Shown here: piece after piece, positions 8,331 to 30,264 of the stretch
How the letters are laid out: each line of letters opens with the position of its first letter
Position numbering within the stretch: position 1 is the stretch's first letter
NCBI RefSeq assembly: GCF_023554255.2
Contig: NZ_JAMJWD020000001.1
Coordinates: 796,755-836,754, forward strand
Reading direction: 5' to 3'
DNA: 40,000 nucleotides
Source: Phyllobacterium sp. 21LDTY02-6
GTDB taxonomy: Bacteria; Pseudomonadota; Alphaproteobacteria; Rhizobiales; Rhizobiaceae
Notes under the pieces: generated by a model
What the model saw: the letters and a program-made list of their open reading frames with translations, nothing else
Told to the model about the DNA's origin: nothing
The model's database searches: none
Made by a program: the position numbers and the translations under genes

Positions 8331-8405
8331 TGGCTCCCCGGGCCGGATTCGAACCAGCGACCAACCGGTTAACAGCCGGTTGCTCTACCGCTGAGCTACC
8401 GGGGA
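8331..8405 (-). tRNA. tRNA-Asn (GUU)
   Basis: The reverse complement folds as a cloverleaf. Acceptor TCCCCGG/CCGGGGA, anticodon arm CCGG-CTGTTAA-CCGG, T arm GGTTCGAATCC, encoded CCA. 75 nt. Confidence 0.9.
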
Positions 8406-9062: not shown

Positions 9063-9136
9063 GGCCTCGTGGCGGAGTGGTTACGCAGAGGACTGCAAAT
9101 CCTTGCACCCCGGTTCGATTCCGGGCGAGGCCTCCA
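9063..9136 (+). tRNA. tRNA-Cys (GCA)
   Basis: Acceptor GGCCTCG/CGAGGCC, anticodon loop CTGCAAA, T arm GGTTCGATTCC, encoded CCA. 74 nt. Confidence 0.9.
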
Positions 9137-9158: not shown

Positions 9159-10343
9159 CTATCTGATTTTGCTTTGATTTTTCTCAGGTGTGGCAGTCTG
9201 GGACGCCATCGCTTCATCAGGGTGTGGCAGTTCGTTCCCGATTTCACCCCAATCGATCCTCAAAACCGCCTGTCGCGCGAGCTTTGATCTGCGGGCATTG
9301 CGCGTGTAGATTTTCGACGTCTTTCCGTCCGACCAGCCGAACATTCCCTCAAGCATGTGATCGGTCGCTTCATTCTCGGCCATGTTCGTCGCAAGGCCCT
9401 TTCGCACGCTGTGTGCGGTGAGATGGGGAAATCCGGCCTGAGTGAACCAGTCTGACACACGATTGCCCAGACCTTTGACCGAAAATGGCTTGCCGAACTC
9501 GGTAAGTAGATAAGCCATGCCCTTCACTGGGTGCATCGCCAGGACGGCCTCAAGGATAGGGTGAATCAGGATCGTCAGCGTCACCGGATGCCTGTTACGG
9601 TTCTTGAACACTCGAAATTCGAACGAATCGCCCCGGCGATGCTGAGGGCCGAGCTTGGCCAGGTCCGAAACGCGAACTCCGGTGTACATGAGAATGGAGA
9701 GGGCAAGGACGGCCTTCGATGAGGTGCCGTGATGCTGGATATATTGCCGAATCTCTTCGTCGCGAGCTGTGGCGTGTCCGTCCGTCTTCTGTCTGAACGA
9801 TTGAACGAGCTTTGCAGTGTTGACCTTGACCAACGGCGCCGGCTTGGTTTTTATCCCGGCTTCAAATATCTGCCTCAACACCTTCAGCCGCTCATCGGCC
9901 GCGAATGGCGTTTGTTTCTTCCTATCGCGCAGCACAGCGATGTTGTCGGCATCGAGTGCCGATATCGGCATGGCGGCGAAAATTCGTTTGTCTGTCTCGC
10001 TGATCGGCTCGAGGAGCATTGCGTCGATGATTGAACGGCGCTTTGATTGGGTTGTAGGGTCAAGGCTGCTGAAAGCATCGCTCTTGAAATACGCGGTGCA
10101 GAGGTAATGAAATGTACCGGGGCGGGCTATCTGAGGCACAACCTTGTCATCAGACACTACATCCTCGGGTAGGGCGATCCCATTGCGAATCCGCCAGTAT
10201 TCTTTCGTGAACTCCTCGCTATCAGGGTTATCTGGAAGGCGCCCCAGGCGCTTCCCATTCAAGCGGAAGTAATACCGCGCTTTGCCATGCCGGTTCGGGT
10301 TGTACTCGATGTATGGCAATTCAACAGCGGCCAAATCGTTCAA
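9159..10343 (-). CDS. int: Tyrosine recombinase / phage integrase
   Basis: 394 aa. TGVRVSDL (Arg), HSVRKGLAT (HxxR), GWSD, KIYTRNA (catalytic Tyr). Adjacent to a tRNA. Confidence 0.92.
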   Translation of the reverse strand: MNDLAAVELPYIEYNPNRHGKARYYFRLNGKRLGRLPDNPDSEEFTKEYWRIRNGIALPEDVVSDDKVVPQIARPGTFHYLCTAYFKSDAFSSLDPTTQSKRRSIIDAMLLEPISETDKRIFAAMPISALDADNIAVLRDRKKQTPFAADERLKVLRQIFEAGIKTKPAPLVKVNTAKLVQSFRQKTDGHATARDEEIRQYIQHHGTSSKAVLALSILMYTGVRVSDLAKLGPQHRRGDSFEFRVFKNRNRHPVTLTILIHPILEAVLAMHPVKGMAYLLTEFGKPFSVKGLGNRVSDWFTQAGFPHLTAHSVRKGLATNMAENEATDHMLEGMFGWSDGKTSKIYTRNARRSKLARQAVLRIDWGEIGNELPHPDEAMASQTATPEKNQSKIR

Positions 10344-20204: not shown

Positions 20205-20407
20205 CCGAGAGGCTTTCAGCGAGGGAAATGACTGAAGAGCTATCGAAGCTGCTCTCCAGCAAGCTTGACTGGCTTTCACGGTTCTCAACAGGTCGAAACA
20301 AGCGCCCTGAGCACGAGCTGGATCGCGTTCGGCGCGAGCGCGATGTTCTCAGCCAGGCCGCACACGATTACCGCAGAGCGACAGAGCGGGAGAGGGGAGC
20401 GGCATGA
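20201..20407 (+). CDS. Hypothetical phage protein (68 aa)
   Basis: Internal start MTERLSAREM. ATGA overlap with the upstream gene. Confidence 0.5.
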   Translation: MTERLSAREMTEELSKLLSSKLDWLSRFSTGRNKRPEHELDRVRRERDVLSQAAHDYRRATERERGAA

Positions 20408-21006
20408 GCGAAAGGCCATTCATGCAGCTGTACGTTTCCGATTTCATCGGCGACACGCTGCACCTCAGCACGGAACAGATAGGAGCATACATGTTGCTCC
20501 TTATGGCCATGTGGAACGCCGACGGCAGCCTGCCTGACGAAGACGCGAAACTCGCTCGCGTCGTCCGCATGTCGGTCAAAAAATGGCGCTCCATCAGCGG
20601 CGATCTCTTGCCGTTCTTTGTGAAGGCGGACGGCAAAATCAGCCACAATCGTCTGACGAAAGAGCTTCAAAAAAGCGCGAGTAAAAGTCAATCGAGAGCT
20701 GCCGCCGGTGCCAAGGGTGGCGAAGCTAAAGCATTGAAAGATAAAGAACGGCACGTGGCAAATGCCAGCGTTTTGCCACAGCATCTTCCAGAAACCAGAG
20801 ACCATATAGAAAAACCTTCCGGTTTTTCAGGGCGCGCAGGCGCGCGAAAACCAAATGGATTTGTCCCAATTCGAAAATCGACAGACGCAGCACTTTCACT
20901 GATCCAGGAGCTCCAACAGCATGAACAATTCCGAGAAGATCGAAGCAACCAAGGCATTGACCAAGCTGTTCGGCAGTTTCCCGCAATCTCCCATGTCCGA
21001 CCCTGA
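20404..21006 (+). CDS. DUF1376 (YdaU-like) phage replication-associated protein
   Basis: MQLYVSDFIGDTLHLSTEQIGAYMLLLMAMWNADGSLPDEDAKLARV is the DUF1376 signature as I recall it. Confidence 0.75.
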   Translation: MSERPFMQLYVSDFIGDTLHLSTEQIGAYMLLLMAMWNADGSLPDEDAKLARVVRMSVKKWRSISGDLLPFFVKADGKISHNRLTKELQKSASKSQSRAAAGAKGGEAKALKDKERHVANASVLPQHLPETRDHIEKPSGFSGRAGARKPNGFVPIRKSTDAALSLIQELQQHEQFREDRSNQGIDQAVRQFPAISHVRP

Positions 21007-21223
21007 TCTGCAGCTTCGTGCCTATCTCGATGCCGTCGAGAGCTTCGAGTGCGTTGACGTTCTGGCAGCTGTCGAGCGTTTCCGGCAGGGCGAGGTGAAA
21101 GAGGTCAACAAGGCCTACTGCCCATCGACGGCTCAGCTCTGTGATGAGGTGCGGTACCGCAAGCAGATGCGGGAGATCATGGCTCGCGCCGGCGTAAAGC
21201 CTGGGACGCTTTTGGTGCAGTGA
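20921..21223 (+). CDS. Hypothetical phage protein (100 aa)
   Basis: AGGAG RBS at 20906-20910. Overlaps the DUF1376 ORF tail by 86 nt. Confidence 0.5.
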   Translation: MNNSEKIEATKALTKLFGSFPQSPMSDPDLQLRAYLDAVESFECVDVLAAVERFRQGEVKEVNKAYCPSTAQLCDEVRYRKQMREIMARAGVKPGTLLVQ

Positions 21224-21525
21224 TGGATACCGAAATTCAAGAACGAGCGAAACGGATCATAGCAGCGAGCCCAGCGTTGGCTCGTGAGATCGTTCGCCAG
21301 TTCAACCCGGCGCCGAAGAAGCTGACCGATCGCCAGCAACAGGCGCTGGACGCAGTGAAGGCATTCCAGACCGAGCATGGCCAGTCGCCGACGTTCAAGG
21401 AAGCGGCGGAGCTTCTCGGATGCTCGTCCACCGCGGCGTTCTACATGCTCCACCGCCTCGAAGAACGGGGACACATTGAGATCGAGCCGCATCAGCGCCG
21501 CTCGATCACCCTCAAAGCATCTTAA
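21220..21525 (+). CDS. Second LexA-N-like winged-helix DNA-binding protein
   Basis: 101 aa. LTDRQQQALDAVKAFQTEHGQSPTFKEAAELLGCSSTAAFYMLHRLEERGHIEIEPHQRRSITL parallels the LexA N-terminal domain. Confidence 0.6.
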   Translation: MMDTEIQERAKRIIAASPALAREIVRQFNPAPKKLTDRQQQALDAVKAFQTEHGQSPTFKEAAELLGCSSTAAFYMLHRLEERGHIEIEPHQRRSITLKAS

Positions 21526-21546
21526 TCGCATCATGAAGGACAAGCC

Positions 21547-22131
21547 ATGAAGGCGGGCATAGACAAAGACAAGCACTGGTACGTGGTGCGTACAACCGTG
21601 AAGGGTGAAGTGAAGGCTTTCGAGAGCATCCGTAAGGCCGGTTACGATGTCTATTTCCCGCGTCGGCGGGTTGAGGTGCAGCACAGGCGGACTAAGACGT
21701 ATGTTGTCAAGGAACAGCCGCTCATGCCTCGGTATCTCTTCGTGGGGCAGCCGAGGGTTAATCCTGACTTCTACCGGTTGCGCAACTGCGATTGTGTCGA
21801 GGGAGTGCTAGGAGTGGACGGCCGCCCAATCCGCGTTTCAGAAAAGAGCGTCGAGGAAATCTACATCGCCGAGATCGAAATGGATTTCGACGATACTCGC
21901 GCAGCACGTATTCATCGCAAGGAGGAACTGGCTTCCGCAAAGGAAAACGCTGCTAGGCAATTCCCATCAGGGCAGAGCGTTTTCGTAGTCGATCCTGCGA
22001 ATCCGTTCTCGAAACATGCCGGTGTGGTCCAGGAAGTCACTAGGGCGGGAAAGGTCAGAGCGCTGATCCAGCTCTTCGGCAGAATGACTCCGGTCGAGTT
22101 CGAAGCGAAACAGCTTTCGTCTGCGGCCTGA
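21547..22131 (+). CDS. NusG/RfaH-like transcription antiterminator (NGN + KOW)
   Basis: 194 aa. NGN-like region WYVVRTTVKGEVKAFESIRKAGYDVYFP and KOW-like region GQSVFVVDPANPFSKHAGVVQEV. Confidence 0.8.
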   Translation: MKAGIDKDKHWYVVRTTVKGEVKAFESIRKAGYDVYFPRRRVEVQHRRTKTYVVKEQPLMPRYLFVGQPRVNPDFYRLRNCDCVEGVLGVDGRPIRVSEKSVEEIYIAEIEMDFDDTRAARIHRKEELASAKENAARQFPSGQSVFVVDPANPFSKHAGVVQEVTRAGKVRALIQLFGRMTPVEFEAKQLSSAA

Positions 22132-22176
22132 CATCAAGTACTTTTGAGTATCGTTCGTCTCAAGGAGTGAGTCGCT

Positions 22177-23184
22177 TTGCAGTTTGAGTATACGGAGCCA
22201 CAAAGTGAACTTGAACGCATGTTTGGCGGCCATTATTCGATTAACTTGTTTGGTCCAATCAAGCTAGGCGATGACATCAGGTTCCAAGAGTTTCTAGCGC
22301 AATGCGCGCCACCGCCCAGAACGCCGGTGTACATCAATTCCACTGGCGGGGACGTTGAGACTGCGATCAAAATTGGCCAGCTCATACGCGGTGAGTGGTT
22401 TTCTACCCATATTGGAAGCTTCGTTCTTGATCACGACCGGCATCATGAACACTATGTTCCGCGGAAGCATATACCCGGTCGTTGTTTAAGCGCGGCTACG
22501 TTGATCTACCTTGGTGGACGGTTGAGATATTTTGACAACGACGCCAAGTTCGGAGTGCATCAGTTCTCGTTCAAAGACCCTGCCCCAGATCATGTTGGAC
22601 GTTCGCAAGTACTCTCCGCAAAGATTGCGCGCTTCATAGAGGACATGGGCATCACATCGGAGTTTCTGAATATCTCTACCGCTGCTCCGGGCGATAAGAT
22701 TAAGCTTCTGGAAGCGGATGAACTTGAGCGAATCGGGGTGGTTACTGGAGGTGAGACTGACGTCACGTGGAGCATGCAAGCGAGAAACAATACCCTCTAT
22801 ATTCGTGGCGAACGGGACTCATTGTATGGTCACCATAAGGTTATGCTTGGCCACACCCGGTCTGGAGGCTTCTACTTTCACGCAGTTATTGAAGCGCAAG
22901 GCCGCGAAGATGAACTGATCAGCTTTCCCGTAGTCGAGATCAATGTTGAAGCTAGTTCGAACAACATAGATATTTCTGAGCGCGCATTTCGCGCCGCGGT
23001 AGGGATATACGTTAATGTCTTTGCCAAACTCGAGCACAATGAAGCTGCAGTGATAGCTAATTCGATAGGTTTCGGAATTCAAATACGTGCGGCGCATGAT
23101 GCGGGTATGTTTTTGGGGATAGCACCCATGAAGACTGACAACGGAAAAGACCAGCTTCTAAGCTTCTACAACAATCTTCGGTGA
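22177..23184 (+). CDS. Orphan ClpP/crotonase-fold (COG3904/SppA-like) serine-protease-like protein with unknown C-terminal domain
   Basis: 335 aa. TTG start 9 nt after AAGGAG. VYINSTGGDVETAIKIGQLIR ... CLSAATLIYLGGRLRY ... FGVHQF aligns by eye with the ClpP INSPGG / Ser / His motifs. AT-richer than its flanks. Confidence 0.65.
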   Translation: MQFEYTEPQSELERMFGGHYSINLFGPIKLGDDIRFQEFLAQCAPPPRTPVYINSTGGDVETAIKIGQLIRGEWFSTHIGSFVLDHDRHHEHYVPRKHIPGRCLSAATLIYLGGRLRYFDNDAKFGVHQFSFKDPAPDHVGRSQVLSAKIARFIEDMGITSEFLNISTAAPGDKIKLLEADELERIGVVTGGETDVTWSMQARNNTLYIRGERDSLYGHHKVMLGHTRSGGFYFHAVIEAQGREDELISFPVVEINVEASSNNIDISERAFRAAVGIYVNVFAKLEHNEAAVIANSIGFGIQIRAAHDAGMFLGIAPMKTDNGKDQLLSFYNNLR

Positions 23185-23227
23185 ACTATTTATGAAAATA
23201 TACCGTTTCATCGGACTTAGATCAGGC

Positions 23228-23312
23228 TATACGCGCATGTAGGATGATTTGATGTTCAGCGCGGACCTTTGGACAGGGGACACTCGCCGGTCAAACCCAA
23301 CTTAAGCAGCAG
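23228..23312 (+). repeat. 85-bp direct repeat, copy R1
   Basis: TATACGCGCATG...AAGCAGCAG. 79/85 identical to 23976-24060 by hand alignment. Confidence 0.85.
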
Positions 23313-23523
23313 ACGAAGTGGCTTCAACAAAGGACAATACTGCTTGGCAGTTCCCGGCGCGTAGAGCGTTTTTGTAGTGATCCGCCAAATCCGTTCTAAG
23401 AACACACAGGCGTGGTTCAGGAAGTAACAAAAGCGGGAAAGGTCAGGGTGACCTCTCATGGAATTGTTTGGCCGGATGACACCAGTTGAATTCAGCGTTA
23501 AACTGTTAGTTTCCGCGGTATAG
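23275..23523 (+). pseudogene. Decayed duplicate of the 3' ~80 codons of the NusG-like gene
   Basis: Nucleotide similarity to 21890-22131. Conceptual translation retains DTR..AS.K.N.A.QFP..SVFVV..LFGRMTPVEF but has several stops and a frameshift. Confidence 0.75.
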
Positions 23524-23532
23524 GATCAGCGA

Positions 23533-23949
23533 TTGGCAGAAATATATCAATCAGCGGCATCACTTAATGTCTCGAGCGACGAACTTGAGATCGCACACGT
23601 TAGTCATCTTCTCGAAGCTGAGCCTGACTTAGCGTACGAGAAGGGGAAAGAACGTGTCTTGCCGAATGGAAATAGAATAATTGCGCACACTGGCCTTTGG
23701 TCCAGAAGCGCAGAATACAGAATACCCGGTGACCTCGACGGACAGATCGCTGAACTATTCACACCGCTTAGCCAGGATCTTGATCACTGGCTCGACGTGT
23801 CATCTCGGTACAGAATACGCATATTCTGCGGACTCTGGTTAAAGGGCAAAAACGAGGGCATAGACCTTGACCCCCAAACACTGATCGAAGTGGCACTGCG
23901 AAACGCCTCTATCGAATTTGACATCTACAACGGCGTTCAACGAAAATAA
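23533..23949 (+). CDS. DUF4279-like protein (138 aa)
   Basis: TTG start after AGGA. TGLWSRS...YRIRIFCGLWLKGKNEGIDLDPQTLIEVALRNASIEFDIY resembles the DUF4279 pattern from memory. Confidence 0.55.
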   Translation: MAEIYQSAASLNVSSDELEIAHVSHLLEAEPDLAYEKGKERVLPNGNRIIAHTGLWSRSAEYRIPGDLDGQIAELFTPLSQDLDHWLDVSSRYRIRIFCGLWLKGKNEGIDLDPQTLIEVALRNASIEFDIYNGVQRK

Positions 23950-23975
23950 TCCTTCACATAGGAAGAAAATCAGTT

Positions 23976-24060
23976 TATACGCGCATGCAGGATGATTTGA
24001 TGTTCAGCGCGGACCTTTGGACAGGGAATACTCGCCGGTCAAACCCAGCCCAAGCAGCAG
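23976..24060 (+). repeat. 85-bp direct repeat, copy R2
   Basis: See R1. Together they flank the DUF4279-like cassette. Confidence 0.85.
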
Positions 24061-24100
24061 CTTGAGGCAGATGGAGGTTTATTCCTCAAATTCAGTTTCA

Positions 24101-24177
24101 TGCGGAGTGGAGAAGTAGTCATCTCGCCGGTCTCATAAACCGGAGATCGTCGGTGCAAATCCGACCTGCCGCAACCA
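24101..24177 (+). tRNA. Non-canonical tRNA-like element with CAU anticodon (pseudo-tRNA or phage tRNA)
   Basis: D arm GAGA-AGTAGTCA-TCTC, anticodon arm CCGGT-CTCATAA-ACCGG, T arm GTCGG-TGCAAAT-CCGAC, 3' ACCA. However, the acceptor has a mismatch plus an extra nucleotide, position 55 is G, and G19 is absent. Confidence 0.4.
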
Positions 24178-24179
24178 CT

Positions 24180-24353
24180 TCATTTGAACTTGCAAAGCTT
24201 TGCCTGGCGAGCTTGCTCTTTCTCAGCCTCCGCCAACGTTTTGAATGGTCCGACGATCTCAGGTTGATCCGATCGTCCTTCAATTCTGAGATAGAACAAC
24301 CCGAGACTTGGCGTGACGTACATCGAAAGCTTTTTGGTCTTCTTTTTGGACAT
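24180..24353 (-). CDS. Possible small basic protein (57 aa)
   Basis: Internal start MSKKKTKKLSMYVTP preceded by AGGTG. ORF only. Confidence 0.35.
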   Translation of the reverse strand: MSKKKTKKLSMYVTPSLGLFYLRIEGRSDQPEIVGPFKTLAEAEKEQARQAKLCKFK

Positions 24354-24521
24354 TGAGCACCTGTGCAAAATGACCAAATAGCAGTTTCGCGGCTAACAAA
24401 TCAACCATGCGAGATCATAATGCGCTGCGTCCGCTTCGTAGGCTTCCGCGCTGACGAATATATGCCAGCCGTAAAGGCGTTCTTCATATTCGGCTCCTGT
24501 ATGCGTTCGTATCGATGAATT

Positions 24522-24546
24522 GGAACGATCAACAGGTTTGCGAGTT
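24522..24546 (+). promoter_or_regulatory. EcfG/general-stress-like promoter (GGAAC-N16-AGTT) upstream of the YciF-like gene
   Basis: GGAAC at 24522-24526 and AGTT at 24543-24546, 33 nt before the ATG at 24579. Confidence 0.4.
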
Positions 24547-24578
24547 GGTTAGGTACTCAATCAAAAGGGAGTACCATC

Positions 24579-25049
24579 ATGAAGACACTCGCGGAGCTGT
24601 TCGAACATACGCTCAAAGATGTCTATTATGCCGAGAACGCAATCGTAAAGGCGCTGCCGAAAGTGTCAGCCGCTGTAAAAAGTGCCGAACTAAAGAAAGC
24701 ACTGGATCACCACCTTGAAGAAACAAAAGGTCAAATTAAAATTCTAGACAAGGTGTTCAAATCGATCAACGTCAAACCCGCCGGTGAAAAATGCGATGCA
24801 ACCGACGGTCTTATTAAGGAGACCGATGGCGTTGTGGCCGAAGCGACGGGCGTCGCACTTGACGCGGGCGCGCTTGCCGCTTGTCAGGCTGTAGAACACT
24901 ACGAGATTGCGCGTTACGGGTCACTTCGTGAGTGGGCAAAGGTGCTCGGAAACGAGGAAGCCCATGTTCTACTCAGTGAAATTCTCGACCAGGAAAAAGC
25001 TGCCAACAACAAGCTGACCAATCTGGCCGTCACTACCATCAACAAATAG
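24579..25049 (+). CDS. YciE/YciF-family (DUF892) ferritin-like stress protein
   Basis: 156 aa. LKDVYYAENAIVKALPK...LDHHLEETKGQIKILDKVF...QAVEHYEIARYGSL...LDQEKAANNKL is typical of DUF892. Confidence 0.85.
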   Translation: MKTLAELFEHTLKDVYYAENAIVKALPKVSAAVKSAELKKALDHHLEETKGQIKILDKVFKSINVKPAGEKCDATDGLIKETDGVVAEATGVALDAGALAACQAVEHYEIARYGSLREWAKVLGNEEAHVLLSEILDQEKAANNKLTNLAVTTINK

Positions 25050-25131
25050 TCTTCCAGATTTGCAGTCATCCCGCACAATAGGTGCGCCTGCGGCAGTCTA
25101 CGGGCTGCCGTTTTCATTTGGAGCAATCACC

Positions 25132-25254
25132 ATGAACCGCAGATCAATCCTGGCACTCCTCGGATTTGCTCCCATAGCCGGCGCTGCTGCCGCAATGCCT
25201 CGCGCTGCTGATCCGGTAAAGCTGGCAAGCACCGGGGGGACGTGGAAGGTCTAA
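25132..25254 (+). CDS. Possible 40-aa peptide with twin-arginine-like signal
   Basis: Internal start MNRRSILALLGFAPIAGAAAA after GGAG. It may be a gene fragment. Confidence 0.3.
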   Translation: MNRRSILALLGFAPIAGAAAAMPRAADPVKLASTGGTWKV

Positions 25255-25276
25255 GGAAAGTCGTCTAGAATCCCGA

Positions 25277-25801
25277 TTATAAAGGATTAGCGTTCGGTGG
25301 GACCAACACAAACTTGTCTGTGTTCGCTTTCATTTCAGCCCACACATGATCGGGAATATAGTGGGGCCAAGACAATTGCTGGTGTTGACCACCAGGTCGA
25401 GAGATTAAACCCTTACTAAGCAATCCAACCAATCGACCCTCGCCGTAGGGATACGGAAAAGACTGAGTATTTCGTTTGAGAAGGTACGCCATAATTGCGT
25501 GTTCCTGGTCAGGTAAGTCGTAGAGTAGTTTTATGTGCCTCGCGATATGTGCACGAGTGGCAAACCAGCTTCTGACCGATGCAATACAATCGATTACTAC
25601 AAGGATCACTTTCACAAAGCAGATGCCGACAGCGAACAAGAAAATAATCAAAGCGGCCGCAAGAAAAGCCGGTCCAATCAAATCTGCATAGGGCAAATTG
25701 TAATAATTTGCGCCCAGGGTACCCCCGCTACCGATGAGCGCCACCAATGCAATTGGCCAGGACACGCTAAGCGCTTCGATAAAGTCTTTTAGGCTTGGCA
25801 C
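25277..25801 (-). CDS. Superinfection-exclusion SieB-like membrane protein
   Basis: 174 aa. GTG start after GGGGAG. Two N-terminal TM helices, then LLYDLPDQEHAIMAYLLKRNTQSF...LLSKGLISR, which resembles the SieB (PF14163) pattern from memory. AT-rich. Confidence 0.55.
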   Translation of the reverse strand: MPSLKDFIEALSVSWPIALVALIGSGGTLGANYYNLPYADLIGPAFLAAALIIFLFAVGICFVKVILVVIDCIASVRSWFATRAHIARHIKLLYDLPDQEHAIMAYLLKRNTQSFPYPYGEGRLVGLLSKGLISRPGGQHQQLSWPHYIPDHVWAEMKANTDKFVLVPPNANPL

Positions 25802-25866
25802 AATAGCTCCCCATTTTTAAATTTGATCCAACAGCTTCGCTCTCGGGAAAGCAAGAGGTGTGCCGC

Positions 25867-26496
25867 ATGTTCATGTCTCGCCCACTGCCACCAGAAGCGA
25901 TCACTGCCATTGACGCAACGAGCACCTTTGCGCCAGCTCCCCAATTGGTAGAGTGGGCCAGGGCGACTTTCATCAACGAAGACGCCAAGCTGTTTAACCC
26001 GGATCACTTCCATCTCAACAGCGCCTCGCTTGGCATTCTCTGGACCAACGTCAGTAACACCCGCAAGGGGCGCAGCATCATAGGCCAGTGCGAAGAGGGC
26101 AAGCCATCTGGCATGATGGGCAAATGGGGTAAGGCCCGAGCAGAAGAGCAGATCGTCGGATGGTTCGGCACGATACCCGATTTCATCATCACGATAGATG
26201 CTCTCTACGCCGTGGAATGTTCGGATGCTGAATTTTGCGCGCTGATCGAGCATGAGCTTTACCACGCGGCACAAGAGCGAGATCCTTTCGGTGCTCCCAA
26301 GTTCAGCAAGAGTACTGGCATGCCGATATTCACTCTACGGGGACATGACGTGGAAGAGTTCGTCGGCGTGGTCAGGCGATATGGAGCTGACGCCACCCAA
26401 ATTCGGGCGCTCGTCGATGCAGCCAATGCAGGACCAGAGATCGCCAACGTTCGTATCGCAAATGCATGCGGCACCTGTCAGCTTCGTGCTGCTTGA
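25867..26496 (+). CDS. Putative phage metallopeptidase (HExxH)
   Basis: ATG at 25867, 8 nt after AAGAGG (the track ORF uses GTG at 25858). HELYH motif within EFCALIEHELYHAAQERD. Confidence 0.65.
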   Translation: MFMSRPLPPEAITAIDATSTFAPAPQLVEWARATFINEDAKLFNPDHFHLNSASLGILWTNVSNTRKGRSIIGQCEEGKPSGMMGKWGKARAEEQIVGWFGTIPDFIITIDALYAVECSDAEFCALIEHELYHAAQERDPFGAPKFSKSTGMPIFTLRGHDVEEFVGVVRRYGADATQIRALVDAANAGPEIANVRIANACGTCQLRAA

Positions 26497-26497
26497 A

Positions 26498-26860
26498 CTA
26501 ACTGGTGTAGTCTGGAACGCGTCCGAGAACAGAAAAGTTGTAAATGGGATGATGTTTGGGGTCGCCGTATCTCAAGACCGCCAGCTTGCGCTTATCTAGA
26601 TCGATACGAACAATTTCAACGCTGTCACTGAATGTGCGAAGATTTTTGGCGTACCAATAGCCGATGGTTAAACTTCCAGCTCGTTTCGCCTGATCGTGAA
26701 TCTTGGCGATTGTTCGATAATTATAGTGGAGCTGTGCGGCGCCGTGTGTCCAGCTTGAAATAGCCTGTTGGGAAACCCCCATCCGCTTTGCCAACTCGGA
26801 TTGATTCATTCTAGTAAGCCTCATGATCTCCATGATCTTGTCGGCCGAAGAAAGTTCCAT
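26498..26860 (-). CDS. XRE-family HTH regulator with ~70-aa unknown C-terminal domain
   Basis: 120 aa. Strong RBS GGGAGGTGG. HTH MNQSELAKRMGVSQQAISSWTHG. Confidence 0.8.
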   Translation of the reverse strand: MELSSADKIMEIMRLTRMNQSELAKRMGVSQQAISSWTHGAAQLHYNYRTIAKIHDQAKRAGSLTIGYWYAKNLRTFSDSVEIVRIDLDKRKLAVLRYGDPKHHPIYNFSVLGRVPDYTS

Positions 26861-26899
26861 TATTCCACCTCCCTTTTTTGACCGGACTTTGACATAGCC

Positions 26900-27364
26900 A
26901 TGGCTAAAGCGAAACTCTCAGATGAGGTGAAAACCTACATCGTGCAGGCCGTGGCATGTTTTGACAGTCCATCTGTAGTCGCTGCTGCGGTCAAGAAGGA
27001 GATGGGCATCGAGGTCAGCCGTCAGTTGGTGGAAAGCCACGATCCGAACAAGAAGGCCGCTTCAGGATTGGCTCCGAAGTGGAGGGCGCTGTTCGAGGAG
27101 ACGCGCAAGACCTTTCTCGAAGACACTGCCACGATAGCCATTTCTCATCGGGCAGTTCGGCTCCGAGCATTGCAGCGCATGGCCGACAAGGCTGAAACCC
27201 AAGGAAATATGGTTCTTGCCGCGTCCCTGATGAAGCAGGCGGCCGAGGAAATTGGCAACGCCTATACGAACCGGCGCGAACTCACGGGGAAGGATGGAAA
27301 GGATTTGCCGGTGCCAGTATCGCCGGTGACGATATTCCAGTTGCCCGACAATGGCAGGAGCTGA
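26900..27364 (+). CDS. Terminase small subunit (DUF2280-like)
   Basis: MAKAKLSDEVKTYIVQAVACFDSPSVVAAAVKKEMG matches my recollection of DUF2280 TerS. Immediately upstream of TerL. Confidence 0.7.
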   Translation: MAKAKLSDEVKTYIVQAVACFDSPSVVAAAVKKEMGIEVSRQLVESHDPNKKAASGLAPKWRALFEETRKTFLEDTATIAISHRAVRLRALQRMADKAETQGNMVLAASLMKQAAEEIGNAYTNRRELTGKDGKDLPVPVSPVTIFQLPDNGRS

Positions 27365-28769
27365 AGCAGGGCAGGCGGCCCAAACCATAATCCGTCCTCA
27401 ACCGGGACCGCAGACTGCCTTTCTGGCTTCGCCGGCCGATATCGCGATCTATGGCGGGTCAGCTGGCGGTGGCAAGACATGGGCTCTCCTAATGGAGCCT
27501 TTGCGCCATGTTGCCAATCCGCAGTTCGGTGCAGTGTTCTTCCGTCGATCGACTGTGCAGGTGCGCAACGAGGGCGGGCTCTGGGACGAGAGCGAGAAGC
27601 TCTACCCGAGCATAGGTGCGGCGCCGAAAGAACACGTTCTTGAATGGAAGTTTCCGTCCGGCTCTTCGGTCTCCTTTGCTCACCTGGAGCACGACAAGAC
27701 AGTGCTCAACTGGCAGGGATCACAGATACCGCTCATCTGCTTCGATGAGCTGACGCATTTCAGCGCCAAGCAGTTCTGGTACATGGTTTCGCGCAACCGC
27801 TCGATGAGCGGCGTGCGGCCATATATCAGAGCAACATGCAATCCTGATGCTGACAGCTGGGTCGCCGAGTTCATCGCCTGGTGGATCGATCCTGATACGG
27901 GATTGCCGATACCGGAGCGGGCAGGCGTCCTGCGCTGGTTCGTCCGCATAGGTGACGCGATCATCTGGGGGAGTAGCCCGGGAGAACTCGCACACTACAC
28001 GGCGCCGAATGAAGATGGGATTGAGGCGCCGATACCTCCGAAGTCGGTAACGTTCATCCCGGCCAAGCTCAGCGATAACCGCGCGCTGATGGCAGCAGAT
28101 CCAAGCTACCTTGCGAGCCTTATGGCGCTTCCAACTGTGGAGCGCGAGCGGCTGCTCGGAGGCAACTGGAAGATCAGGCCAGCGGCTGGGCTCTACTTCC
28201 AGAGAGCGTGGTGCCAGATTGTCGACGCCGTGCCATCGGATATCACATGGATCCGCGGTTGGGATTTGGCGGGAACACCAAAGACAGAAAGCAATGACCC
28301 TGATTGGACTTGCGGTACCAAGATGGGAATGACCCGAGACGGTCGTTACTTCGTTGCTGATCATCGCAGAGATAGGGCGAGCCCTGCCGGTGTCGAACGC
28401 ATGATCAAGAACACAGCCGATCGCGATGGAATAACGGTGGGTATTTCACTGCCGCAGGATCCGGGGCAAGCAGGCAAAAGCCAGATCGCAACGCTGACAA
28501 AATTGCTGGCTGGCTACAACGTTCGGTCTTCGCCCGAATCTGGTGACAAAATTACTCGTTTTGGCGGGTTCTCAGCGCAGGCCGAGGCAGGAAACGTGTT
28601 TGTTGTCCGCGGTAGTTGGAACGAAATCTGGTTCTCTGAGCTCGAAGGCTTTCCCGAAGCCACACATGATGATGATGCGGATAGTACAAGCCGAGCCTTC
28701 AATGCCTTGCTTTCCGGCGGGTCGCCCGCGCCACTCTTCGGAACATATGGACGGATAGCAAATGGTTAA
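27351..28769 (+). CDS. Terminase large subunit
   Basis: 472 aa. Walker A YGGSAGGGKTWALL, Walker B-like LICFDELTHF, C-terminal nuclease-like acidic motifs. Confidence 0.9.
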   Translation: MAGAEAGQAAQTIIRPQPGPQTAFLASPADIAIYGGSAGGGKTWALLMEPLRHVANPQFGAVFFRRSTVQVRNEGGLWDESEKLYPSIGAAPKEHVLEWKFPSGSSVSFAHLEHDKTVLNWQGSQIPLICFDELTHFSAKQFWYMVSRNRSMSGVRPYIRATCNPDADSWVAEFIAWWIDPDTGLPIPERAGVLRWFVRIGDAIIWGSSPGELAHYTAPNEDGIEAPIPPKSVTFIPAKLSDNRALMAADPSYLASLMALPTVERERLLGGNWKIRPAAGLYFQRAWCQIVDAVPSDITWIRGWDLAGTPKTESNDPDWTCGTKMGMTRDGRYFVADHRRDRASPAGVERMIKNTADRDGITVGISLPQDPGQAGKSQIATLTKLLAGYNVRSSPESGDKITRFGGFSAQAEAGNVFVVRGSWNEIWFSELEGFPEATHDDDADSTSRAFNALLSGGSPAPLFGTYGRIANG

Positions 28770-30264
28770 TAACACGCCCGATACACCATCTTGCGATTAC
28801 CTCGCCATGAGTCCGTACTGGTGCATGGTGGAAACGATGCTTGAAGGTGCTCAAGCCATGCGTGCGGCCGGCAAGGCTTATCTGCCCCAGTTTCCAAATG
28901 AAACTGAAACCAACTACGAGTACCGGCGCAAGAACGCCAAGTTCACCAATGTGTTTCGCGATCTGGTCGAGGGCCTAGCTGCCAAGCCATTCGCCAAGCA
29001 GGTTGATCTCGTTGAAAAGTCGGCTTCGCCCGCAATCAAATCATTTGTCGAGGACGTTGACGGAGCCGGCAATCATCTACATGTTTTCGCTGGCGATGTG
29101 TTCTTCAATGGCATTGCGAGCGCGATAGATTGGATGCTCGTCGATCATACGGCTGTCCCAACGGGAATTAGCGCCACCGATGAGCGCAGGATGGGAGCGC
29201 GGCCCTATTGGGTTCGTATTCCGGCCACCCGCATGAAGTGGGTCGAATCCGCGATGATCGAGGGCAAGGAGCAATTCGTCTACGCCGCCATTCATGAGCC
29301 AACCACAGTTCGCAAAGGCTTTGATGAGGTCACGATAGACCGGATGCGCCTTTTGATCCGGGACAGGGCCGATGACGGTTCCTATGGTCCGGCACGATTT
29401 GAGATTTGGGAAGCGACCGCGGCAAAGGTCGGAAGCAAATCGACTTCGGTCAATTGGGTGATGAAGGAAAATGGCCCAATCTCGATCGGTGTCATCGCAC
29501 TTGTCCCATTCATGACCGGCCGTCGCAAGGAAGGTACATGGCAACTCCTTCCTCCGATGAAGGATGCGGCTTACCTGCAGGTCGAACACTACCAACAGGA
29601 AACCAATCTAAAATCGGCCAAAGAACTGACTGCATTCCCGATGCTGGCAGGTAATGGCATTTCTCCTCCGCTCGATAGCAACGGTCAGCCGGTGATAGCT
29701 CCGATAGGCCCGTCTGTAGTGCTCTATGCCCCGATGGGAGGGCAGGGTCAGCAGCATGGCGAATGGAAGTTTATTGAACCGACAGCGGCTTCCCTGAAGT
29801 TCTTAGCTGAAGAGGTAGACAAGACCGAGCAGCAGCTCCGCGAGCTTGGCCGTCAGCCGCTTACAGCCCAAACTGGCAATCTGACAGTCGTGACAACTGC
29901 CTTTGCCGCTCAGAAGGGCAATTCGGCTGTCCAGGCATGGGCATTGAATCTCAAGGATGCGCTCGAGCAGGCGCTGAGGTTCACGTGCTTATGGTTAAAG
30001 GATGCCACGCAGCCGGAAGTGACGGTTTACACTGACTTTGATGTCGAGACAGACAGCGTCGAGGGCATGAAGGTCGTCCTCGATATGAAGAAAGAAAGCC
30101 TGATCTCGCGCGTCGCTGCAATCAATGAAGCCAAGCGCCGGAACATCCTCGCTCCTGAATATGATGAAGCTGAAGATCTAGAACTTATTCTATCGGAAAT
30201 CCCCGGCGAGGATGGCGAGGACGATATTGCCGGATCGGTAACCCCGCCGGCAAACGCGGCCTGA
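28762..30264 (+). CDS. Portal protein (DUF4055-type)
   Basis: 500 aa, directly after TerL with an 8-nt overlap. Acidic C-terminus. Confidence 0.8.
   Translation: MVNNTPDTPSCDYLAMSPYWCMVETMLEGAQAMRAAGKAYLPQFPNETETNYEYRRKNAKFTNVFRDLVEGLAAKPFAKQVDLVEKSASPAIKSFVEDVDGAGNHLHVFAGDVFFNGIASAIDWMLVDHTAVPTGISATDERRMGARPYWVRIPATRMKWVESAMIEGKEQFVYAAIHEPTTVRKGFDEVTIDRMRLLIRDRADDGSYGPARFEIWEATAAKVGSKSTSVNWVMKENGPISIGVIALVPFMTGRRKEGTWQLLPPMKDAAYLQVEHYQQETNLKSAKELTAFPMLAGNGISPPLDSNGQPVIAPIGPSVVLYAPMGGQGQQHGEWKFIEPTAASLKFLAEEVDKTEQQLRELGRQPLTAQTGNLTVVTTAFAAQKGNSAVQAWALNLKDALEQALRFTCLWLKDATQPEVTVYTDFDVETDSVEGMKVVLDMKKESLISRVAAINEAKRRNILAPEYDEAEDLELILSEIPGEDGEDDIAGSVTPPANAA

Follow-up and report, generated by a model that had tools for sequence, protein, structure and literature searches.

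A mobile accessory gene encoding a ClpP-fold protein with an IalB-like domain in an alphaproteobacterial prophage, and its possible role in conflict between mobile elements

The window analyzed here, a 40,000-nucleotide (nt) stretch of the Phyllobacterium sp. 21LDTY02-6 assembly (contig NZ_JAMJWD020000001.1, positions 796,755 to 836,754 of the forward strand), carries host DNA followed by a prophage, and the cargo of that prophage includes a gene for a 335-residue protein that is the subject of this report (Table 1). Its translation is 100% identical to the NCBI hypothetical protein M8997_003945 of the same strain, and the identical UniRef entry (P0001) is labeled as a COG3904 family protein. 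A preliminary description, made from the sequence alone, had reported a complete reading frame with a TTG start and an AAGGAG ribosome binding site; both were found as described, and the start position is common to all 67 aligned homologues (M-Q/E-F-x-Y/F). Upstream extension of the reading frame is impossible because of an in-frame TGA at 22168-22170, and the N-terminus (MQFEYTEPQSELERMF) contains no hydrophobic stretch, which agrees with the earlier statement that a signal peptide is absent. The gene is 49.4% G+C, whereas the left arm of the prophage reaches 56.8% and the host DNA on the window’s left side 63.9%, and the line at 22201-22260 that had been counted at 42% was measured at 41.7%, a value as low as which is found in only 2.3% of the window’s 60-nt lines. 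The protein is not the orphan it had been taken for: a word-indexed search identified at least 279 homologue clusters at E ≤ 1e-3 in Rhizobiales and Rhodobacterales (named sources being Rhizobium, Mesorhizobium, Ensifer/Sinorhizobium, Brucella, Rhodovulum and Salipiger), and among the best 120 of these almost every match covered the full length, with identities of 51-69%. The N- and C-terminal halves always co-occur in homologues and change at an equal rate, with 55% mean pairwise identity each. The gene product is an intact cytoplasmic two-domain protein.

Structure searches with models of each half, which had been suggested together with the first description, returned a ClpP fold for the N-terminal half and an IalB-like fold for the C-terminal half. 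The full-length AlphaFold 2 (AF2) model, built from the 67-sequence alignment, had a predicted local distance difference test score (pLDDT) of 92.4 and a predicted template modeling score (pTM) of 0.87. When this model was compared with the PDB using Foldseek, all of the top 50 matches were ClpP (best E 1.7e-7, probability 1.0), with 180-216 aligned columns and template modeling (TM) scores of 0.50-0.66 for the target. The model identifies the N-terminal domain as a hydrolase of the ClpP fold (peptidase clan SK), in keeping with the serine-protease-like character first assigned to it by eye. At the level of sequence, PHROG 1827 (“ATP-dependent protease”) matched the protein at 7.8e-7 and NCBIfam Clp_rel_HeadMat matched it weakly (E 0.012, 33 residues), while the family profile reached ClpP among PDB sequences at E 0.07. 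Pfam CLP_protease gave sub-threshold matches to 36 of the 67 homologues (best E 0.0023), and M8997_003945 itself had no Pfam match at E ≤ 10. Searches of PDB sequences with the whole protein and with the C-terminal domain profile produced chance matches only.

Three motifs had been proposed from the sequence to make up the active site, namely an INSPGG-like loop (INSTGG, residues 53-58), a nucleophile segment (CLSAATLIYLGG, residues 103-114) and a histidine segment (FGVHQF, residues 125-130). All three are present and are the best-conserved parts of the family, with S55, G57, G58, C103, S105, G113, G114 and R117 invariant across the 67 homologues. In a profile alignment, the family segment gkClSaatlvylGGr..lrylseeskfgvhq was matched to GQAASAGALLLAGGAkgKRHCLPHSSVMIHQ of Coxiella ClpP, so that S105 and H128 coincide with the catalytic residues Ser and His of ClpP, respectively. 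The wider superfamily was represented by 77 full-length proteins clustered at 50% identity, in which G57 and G58 are each retained 76 times. Of these proteins, 69 retain the Ser-His pair, the same eight lack both residues, and no protein has one without the other. Such strict joint retention or loss is expected of a working dyad and constitutes the strongest evidence to suggest that the two residues function as a pair; the eight proteins without them are probably pseudo-enzymes. From these sequence patterns, M8997_003945 is probably an active Ser-His peptidase. Position 107 is occupied by Cys (C-x-S-A-C) in 69 of the 77 representatives and by Ala in M8997_003945. A 22-residue His-rich insertion had also been described, and this held only in part: there is an extra loop, ~18 residues longer than the matching ClpP stretch, but it is the most variable part of the family and its richness in His is peculiar to this one protein.

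The C-terminal half, in which nothing had been recognized previously, could be assigned a fold. Modeled alone (AF2, 30 sequences), the domain reached a pLDDT of 93 and was beta-rich with three helices, and its best PDB match was 3dtd, the invasion-associated protein B (IalB) of Bartonella henselae (Foldseek E 5.7e-4 to 2.3e-3 across the chains, probability 1.0, TM 0.55-0.63, ~150 columns at 12-14% identity). IalB-family proteins (PF06776) are typical of Alphaproteobacteria. The likeness is one of beta-rich fold and does not extend to a sequence-level family match, as Pfam IalB matched none of the 67 members at E ≤ 1 and the C-terminal profile search of PDB sequences did not retrieve 3dtd. What IalB does is undefined, so that the match identifies a type of fold but implies no activity. 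Among BFVD viral models the best match (E 1.9e-3, TM 0.49) was to an unnamed protein and was unconvincing. A profile of the domain was also searched against 1.84 billion representative proteins and matched 160 at E ≤ 1e-3. Most of these are 330-390 residues long with the domain at approximately residues 200-350, i.e., the same two-domain architecture, and all intact proteins examined have the ClpP-like domain in front. Four short matches (175-206 residues) were considered as stand-alone versions and rejected, as they begin within the last helices of the N-terminal domain and are probably truncated gene calls. Since intact matches share both domains and the short ones are probably truncated calls, the C-terminal domain appears to be private to this architecture. 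Very long matches (P0131, P0162, P0236 and P0249) with repeated partial hits to the profile were treated as repetitive-sequence artefacts; P0131, the only one scanned, gave incoherent Pfam matches. Polar residues of the domain are conserved superfamily-wide (including W198, G218, K221 and R243, within a KGER(D/N)...G..K...QGR..E pattern), as would be expected if the domain had a surface for binding or another function and were more than a spacer.

M8997_003945 shares with ClpP (MEROPS S14, PF00574) the fold, the INSxGG oxyanion loop, the positions of Ser and His and the GG..R motif that follows. In contrast to ClpP, it falls below the Pfam threshold, has neither a conserved triad Asp nor a linked ATPase, and possesses the extra variable loop and a fused 148-residue C-terminal domain; by sequence threshold, triad Asp and ATPase partnership alike, it lies outside ClpP. 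Both domains and the CxS, GG.R and GVH motifs are found throughout the wider superfamily, and UniRef and NCBI apply the name COG3904 (“predicted periplasmic protein”) to M8997_003945 and many of its homologues. However, most superfamily members are exported or membrane-anchored, in agreement with the COG name, and contain the two cysteines of CxSAC, whereas the clade of M8997_003945 is signal-less and occurs on phages, plasmids and single-gene islets. Proteins of this clade and of a few others lack an export signal and have as their first residues the conserved mature N-terminus (M-x-F-...-P). ClpP-fold peptidases are usually regarded as unfoldase-dependent barrels, membrane-bound signal-peptide peptidases or phage head proteases. 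What is encoded here is a soluble, partner-less version fused to a private IalB-like domain, in a single-gene mobile unit with a selfish appearance.

The gene was found at no fewer than 29 loci among 185,579 species genomes, all of them alphaproteobacterial, and is compositionally foreign in every genome examined: its G+C content is below that of its surroundings in 31 of 31 loci (45-53% versus 54-70%, a mean difference of -12.8 points). The low-G+C islet usually consists of the gene alone (~1.0-1.5 kb). When neighbors at the 31 loci were clustered by blastp, no family recurred, whether partner, ATPase, toxin-antitoxin or immunity gene; no ClpX, ClpA or ClpC gene is linked at these loci, and no AAA+ Clp family was present among the neighbor families listed (the 25 commonest per scan). 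The proposal of a single gene lacking a ClpX or ClpA partner was thereby borne out, and host ClpX may act from elsewhere in the genome. Many copies are wedged among unrelated housekeeping genes (e.g., L006, L043, L056 and L057). Others adjoin a FitA/PIN toxin-antitoxin pair (L040), lie in a primase and AlpA islet (L042) or beside a transposase gene (L005), or belong to an island that also contains genes for a resolvase and an nSTAND protein (L008), and close full-length copies are present on two Rhizobium plasmids. Protein identity is 57% within orders and 53% between Rhizobiales and Rhodobacterales, the nearest neighbor of several Rhizobiales copies is in Rhodobacterales, and different genera of Rhodobacterales have copies with 81-89% identity, in different contexts. 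Such a pattern is typical of an accessory gene that is often transferred and often lost, and there is little doubt that this one is autonomous and mobile. A common mobile cassette with shared ends (resembling an integron, a miniature inverted-repeat transposable element or an insertion sequence) was considered and rejected, as flanks are alike only between close relatives. Disrupted homologues were observed at L030 (255 residues), L032 and L034 (131+145 and 176+191 residues); these could reflect pseudogenization or, for the metagenome-assembled L032 and L034, assembly error.

Five phage lineages carry the gene at five different positions. In the first, comprising the prophage in the window and a sister prophage of P. 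lublinensis (L001), it follows a gene for a NusG-like antiterminator. In HK97-like prophages of Brucella/Ochrobactrum (L003 and 8 of 11 close IMG/VR matches), it lies in antisense orientation, flanked by the genes for the head-tail connector and head closure. A prophage region of Brucella pseudintermedia (L041, 8001-9891) has it 86 nt upstream of a TIR_2 gene. The TIR_2 protein of this region has 263 residues and is encoded on the same strand as the homologue, with an acetyltransferase gene next. In Ensifer prophages (L058 8001-9894, L047 10001-11894), it is found inside the tail module as one half of an antisense pair, the other half being a DUF4238 gene that follows after 8 nt. Finally, on IMG/VR contig L050, it starts 16 nt after a cI-like repressor gene (helix-turn-helix (HTH) plus S24) on the same strand. 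Unrelated temperate phages have repeatedly captured the gene as a moron, i.e., a non-essential cargo gene picked up by a phage. A DUF4238 protein from the P2 hotspot conferred strong resistance to T7 in E. coli (Rousset et al., bioRxiv 10.1101/2021.01.21.427644). This system, Rst_DUF4238, is likewise single-gene cargo of a prophage hotspot, but its protein is unrelated to M8997_003945 and the link is one of neighborhood only, in the Ensifer lineage.

Within the window, host DNA extends to ~8.3 kb and is followed by tRNA genes, an integrase gene and prophage genes up to the window end. The tRNA-Cys gene is likely the attachment site, as it directly abuts the tyrosine integrase gene; no second copy of its 3' end was present within the window, which places the other end of the prophage beyond 40000. 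The cargo slot is marked by the antiterminator gene, the stop codon of which is 45 nt 5' of the start of M8997_003945. The region 22132-26900 is 50% G+C and clearly prophage cargo, and an Rfam scan of 21000-27000 identified nothing besides tRNA-Met. Scans for sigma-70 promoters and terminators around the gene did not rise above chance level. Derivation of M8997_003945 as a recent copy of the prophage’s own head protease was rejected, as resident head proteases are undetected by the family hidden Markov model (E at least 5.9) and the window holds no paralogue.

Table 1. Coordinates of features in the window, counted from its first nucleotide.
Feature	Position	Strand	Basis or remark
tRNA-Asn	8331-8405		
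tRNA-Cys	9063-9136	+	directly abuts integrase gene
Tyrosine integrase gene	9159-10343	-	
DUF1376 gene	20404-21006		
LexA-type HTH gene	21220-21525		
NusG-like antiterminator gene	21547-22131	+	Pfam NusG 7.9e-16; PHROG antiterminator 2.8e-25
Shine-Dalgarno AAGGAG	22162-22167	+	9 nt 5' of TTG; direct sequence reading
M8997_003945 coding sequence (COG3904-type, two domains)	22177-23184	+	complete reading frame, 335 residues, TTG start
N-terminal ClpP-fold domain, residues 1-187	22177-22737	+	Foldseek, weak sequence matches
S55-T-G57-G58, equivalent of ClpP INSPGG oxyanion-hole loop	22339-22350	+	aligned to ClpP YINSPGG
Variable surface loop, residues 84-100	22426-22476	+	least conserved block of 67-homologue alignment
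Ser105 codon AGC, predicted nucleophile	22489-22491	+	invariant in 67 homologues
His128 codon CAT, predicted general base	22558-22560	+	at least 90% conserved in 67 homologues
C-terminal IalB-like beta-rich domain, residues 188-335	22738-23181	+	AF2 model, Foldseek
119-nt direct repeat, copy 1	23194-23312	+	just 3' of M8997_003945 stop; left edge of second cargo insertion
Decayed 3' fragment of a further NusG-like gene, with frameshift	23311-23446 (possibly to ~23495)		77% identical to 21922-22058
DUF4279 gene	23533-23949	+	intact, 138 residues; next gene downstream of M8997_003945
119-nt direct repeat, copy 2	23942-24060		85% identical to copy 1
tRNA-Met (CAT)	24101-24177	+	inside low-G+C cargo region
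DUF892 gene	24579-25049	+	
Phage metallopeptidase gene	25858-26496		
DUF2280 gene	26900-27364		
Large terminase gene	27351-28769		
Portal gene	28762-30264		

The view of this slot as an insertion hotspot was confirmed by comparison with the P. lublinensis prophage, which has the same order of antiterminator gene and homologue followed by different downstream cargo (YflT, DUF1236 and HSP20); the late module differs too. Phyllobacterium prophages may deliver stress-tolerance cargo. The surroundings of tRNA-Met (23942-24175) are conserved in the P. lublinensis prophage. A segment of ~640 nt between the two 119-nt direct repeats is extra in the window and absent from L001, and has the appearance of a trace left when further cargo was inserted. 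It contains the remnant of a NusG-like gene and the DUF4279 gene, and this cassette apparently came from a phage in which the DUF4279 gene directly followed the antiterminator gene. The presence of the NusG-like remnant beside DUF4279 implies that the slot after the antiterminator gene is a recurrent cargo site. DUF4279 has been described, under the name FdL-Imm5, as a family of immunity proteins in polymorphic toxin systems (PMC9424270), and with its copy in the window the prophage may carry an immunity gene that is an orphan.

Among the explanations considered for M8997_003945, we tentatively ranked first a proteolytic effector in conflict between mobile elements, with a non-phage accessory or stress peptidase following closely and a phage-serving protease third. 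A role in conflict is suggested because the phage slots occupied by the gene are typical of genes expressed alone or with the lysogeny repressor. The gene is placed after cI in one lineage and antisense in late operons in two, and it has TIR_2, DUF4238 or DUF4279 neighbors in three, so that four of the five lineages have it beside a gene of lysogeny or conflict type; such positions are typical of lysogen-expressed cargo such as exclusion genes. Catalysis by the N-terminal domain would depend on the dyad of Ser105 and His128 and on an oxyanion loop with Gly57 and Gly58, and would proceed without a canonical Asp and without an unfoldase, i.e., as an ATP-independent peptidase. The C-terminal domain would recognize a substrate or ligand, or gate the active site. 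Because the gene travels without an immunity or antitoxin gene, its product would have to be harmless at rest, being either narrowly specific or latent. In an exclusion version, it would cleave a protein of a superinfecting phage, and in an abortive-infection version it would cleave a host protein once triggered, as the Lit protease does. Lit, encoded by the e14 prophage of E. coli, is a single prophage-encoded abortive-infection zinc metalloprotease and offers a conceptual precedent for a lone prophage protease effector, although its fold is unrelated to that of M8997_003945.

The phage-exclusion or abortive-infection role had been the proposal of the preliminary description, and we consider it possible but doubtful. 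Its favorable part, repeated phage capture beside conflict-type genes, was established, while the role itself was not, given housekeeping neighbors and a periplasmic superfamily. Several observations weigh against it. Approximately 60 of the 77 superfamily representatives have a signal peptide or membrane segment, and because most are exported or membrane-anchored, the sequences suggest that the ancestral job was done in the periplasm and had nothing to do with phage. Ordinary metabolic and transport genes made up the great majority of the 81 immediate and 120 larger neighbors in 21 species-representative genomes, and the neighbor families listed included only two integrases, one transposase and one resolvase as mobile-element genes. 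PADLOC matches among these neighbors were few (mad3, 4; mad8, 3; AriA, 2; an ATPase-Toprim model, 1) and were read as cross-matches of ABC ATPases from their counts rather than protein by protein, since the four mad3 matches equal in number the four ABC_tran proteins in the Pfam scan. The neighborhood comparison, which had been proposed as a test for enrichment in prophages or defense islands, thus gave a mixed picture: phage capture is clear and repeated, and the FitA/PIN pair at L040 and the nSTAND/resolvase island at L008 point the same way, but no enrichment in defense islands was evident on the chromosomes of these 21 genomes. The C-terminal domain is not hypervariable, unlike many arms-race sensors, and the triad Asp is not conserved, as the column judged equivalent by eye (in the PGDKIKLL segment) is occupied by D, T, S, N, A or other residues. 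The copy in the window may be expressed during lytic growth rather than in the lysogen, because it follows the early/regulatory operon after a gap of 45 nt with no promoter-like site of its own. Genes of stress type share the Phyllobacterium cargo (DUF892 in the window; YflT, DUF1236 and HSP20 at 11527-14270 of L001). PADLOC-DB v2 contained no family matching the protein at E ≤ 10. The earlier remark that no described defense system has this architecture was upheld by the PADLOC-DB v2 and literature searches, neither of which gave a match.

An accessory cytoplasmic peptidase with no role in phage conflict, serving for example in the turnover of peptides or damaged proteins under stress and carried as neutral or host-beneficial cargo, is a comparably tentative explanation. 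It would account for the many chromosomal copies (the majority) that lie among ordinary genes without mobile-element or defense markers, for the stress-type genes in the same Phyllobacterium cargo region, for a superfamily that is mainly periplasmic and housekeeping-looking, and for a C-terminal domain that is not hypervariable. It fits less well with a very patchy distribution (at least 29 loci in 185,579 species genomes), foreign G+C content in all 31 loci, the three disrupted copies, and repeated independent phage capture beside cI, TIR_2 and DUF4238 genes. The EcfG general-stress promoter (GGAAC-N15-18-CGTT) was also found upstream in none of the 31 loci.

A protease serving the carrying phage, either in lytic growth or in counter-defense by degrading a host defense or regulatory protein, is improbable overall. 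The arrangement in the window fits it better than it fits lysogenic expression: here and in L001, the gene lies on the same strand after the antiterminator gene, and this position, with the 45-nt gap and no promoter-like site, suggests expression together with phage early or middle genes. Signal-less homologues consisting of the N-terminal domain only are moreover encoded by Agrobacterium phages Atu_ph08 (28% identity) and Atu_ph07 (22.5%). Conversely, many solitary chromosomal and plasmid copies have no surrounding phage, and the gene occupies positions of lysogen-expressed genes in L050, where it comes after cI, and in the Brucella and Ensifer lineages, where it runs antisense to the late operon.

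Less probable again is a non-catalytic ClpP-fold pseudo-protease that acts by binding, e.g., as a decoy or assembly factor. The poor conservation of the canonical triad Asp, the persistence of 8 of 77 superfamily representatives without Ser and His, and the lack of a Pfam match for M8997_003945, with only sub-threshold CLP_protease matches in 36 of 67 homologues, would be compatible with such a protein; however, S105 and the oxyanion-loop glycines are invariant in its clade, H128 is at least 90% conserved, and Ser and His are retained or lost jointly as a working dyad predicts. A prohead maturation protease or scaffold component, to which the weak Clp_rel_HeadMat match, a match to PHROG 1684 (“head maturation protease”, E 0.026) and the location within the head-tail module of the Brucella lineage could point, is effectively refuted by the separate head proteases of L003 (PF00574) and L041 (S49) and the fused Peptidase_S78-capsid gene of L001, by the failure of the family profile to detect resident head proteases, by the antisense orientation to the structural operon in L003, L047 and L058, and by the location of most copies outside phages.

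Returning to the conflict effector, its fullest form would make M8997_003945 the first anti-phage effector, for superinfection exclusion or abortive infection, built on a ClpP fold. This would be a single-gene, ATPase-independent Ser-His peptidase in which the IalB-like domain serves to sense or capture a protein of the phage or the host. Its ancestor would have been a periplasmic COG3904 protein that lost its signal peptide, and the gene would spread between phages, plasmids and chromosomes of Alphaproteobacteria as an islet of 1 kb with low G+C; taken as a whole, we regard this as rather unlikely. If a conflict role is true, it would add a new enzymatic chassis to the defense repertoire of Rhizobiales and Rhodobacterales, which are agriculturally and ecologically important hosts with little-studied phage defenses, and would provide a first functional foothold for both the uncharacterized COG3904 family and the IalB fold. 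If it is not, the gene is still a clean and cheap test case, with one gene, two obvious point mutants and natural lysogens. The family is real, well defined, uncharacterized and easy to test, and the defense reading is attractive but circumstantial.

More distant relatives extend the distribution of the superfamily. Homologues at 25-33% identity, annotated as hypothetical, are found on large Pseudomonas megaplasmids, usually at two sites per plasmid (examples being NZ_CP093017.1, 119228-120187, and NC_009444.1, pQBR103), and the translated NZ_CP093017.1 homologue has both domains and no signal peptide. In addition, 58 Phaeobacter plasmid records match. Among periplasmic relatives of the two-domain module, P0159 has a multi-pass membrane anchor, and fusions were observed to a caspase domain (Peptidase_C14, P0182), to PAN domains (P0201) and to an LprI lysozyme-inhibitor domain (P0172).

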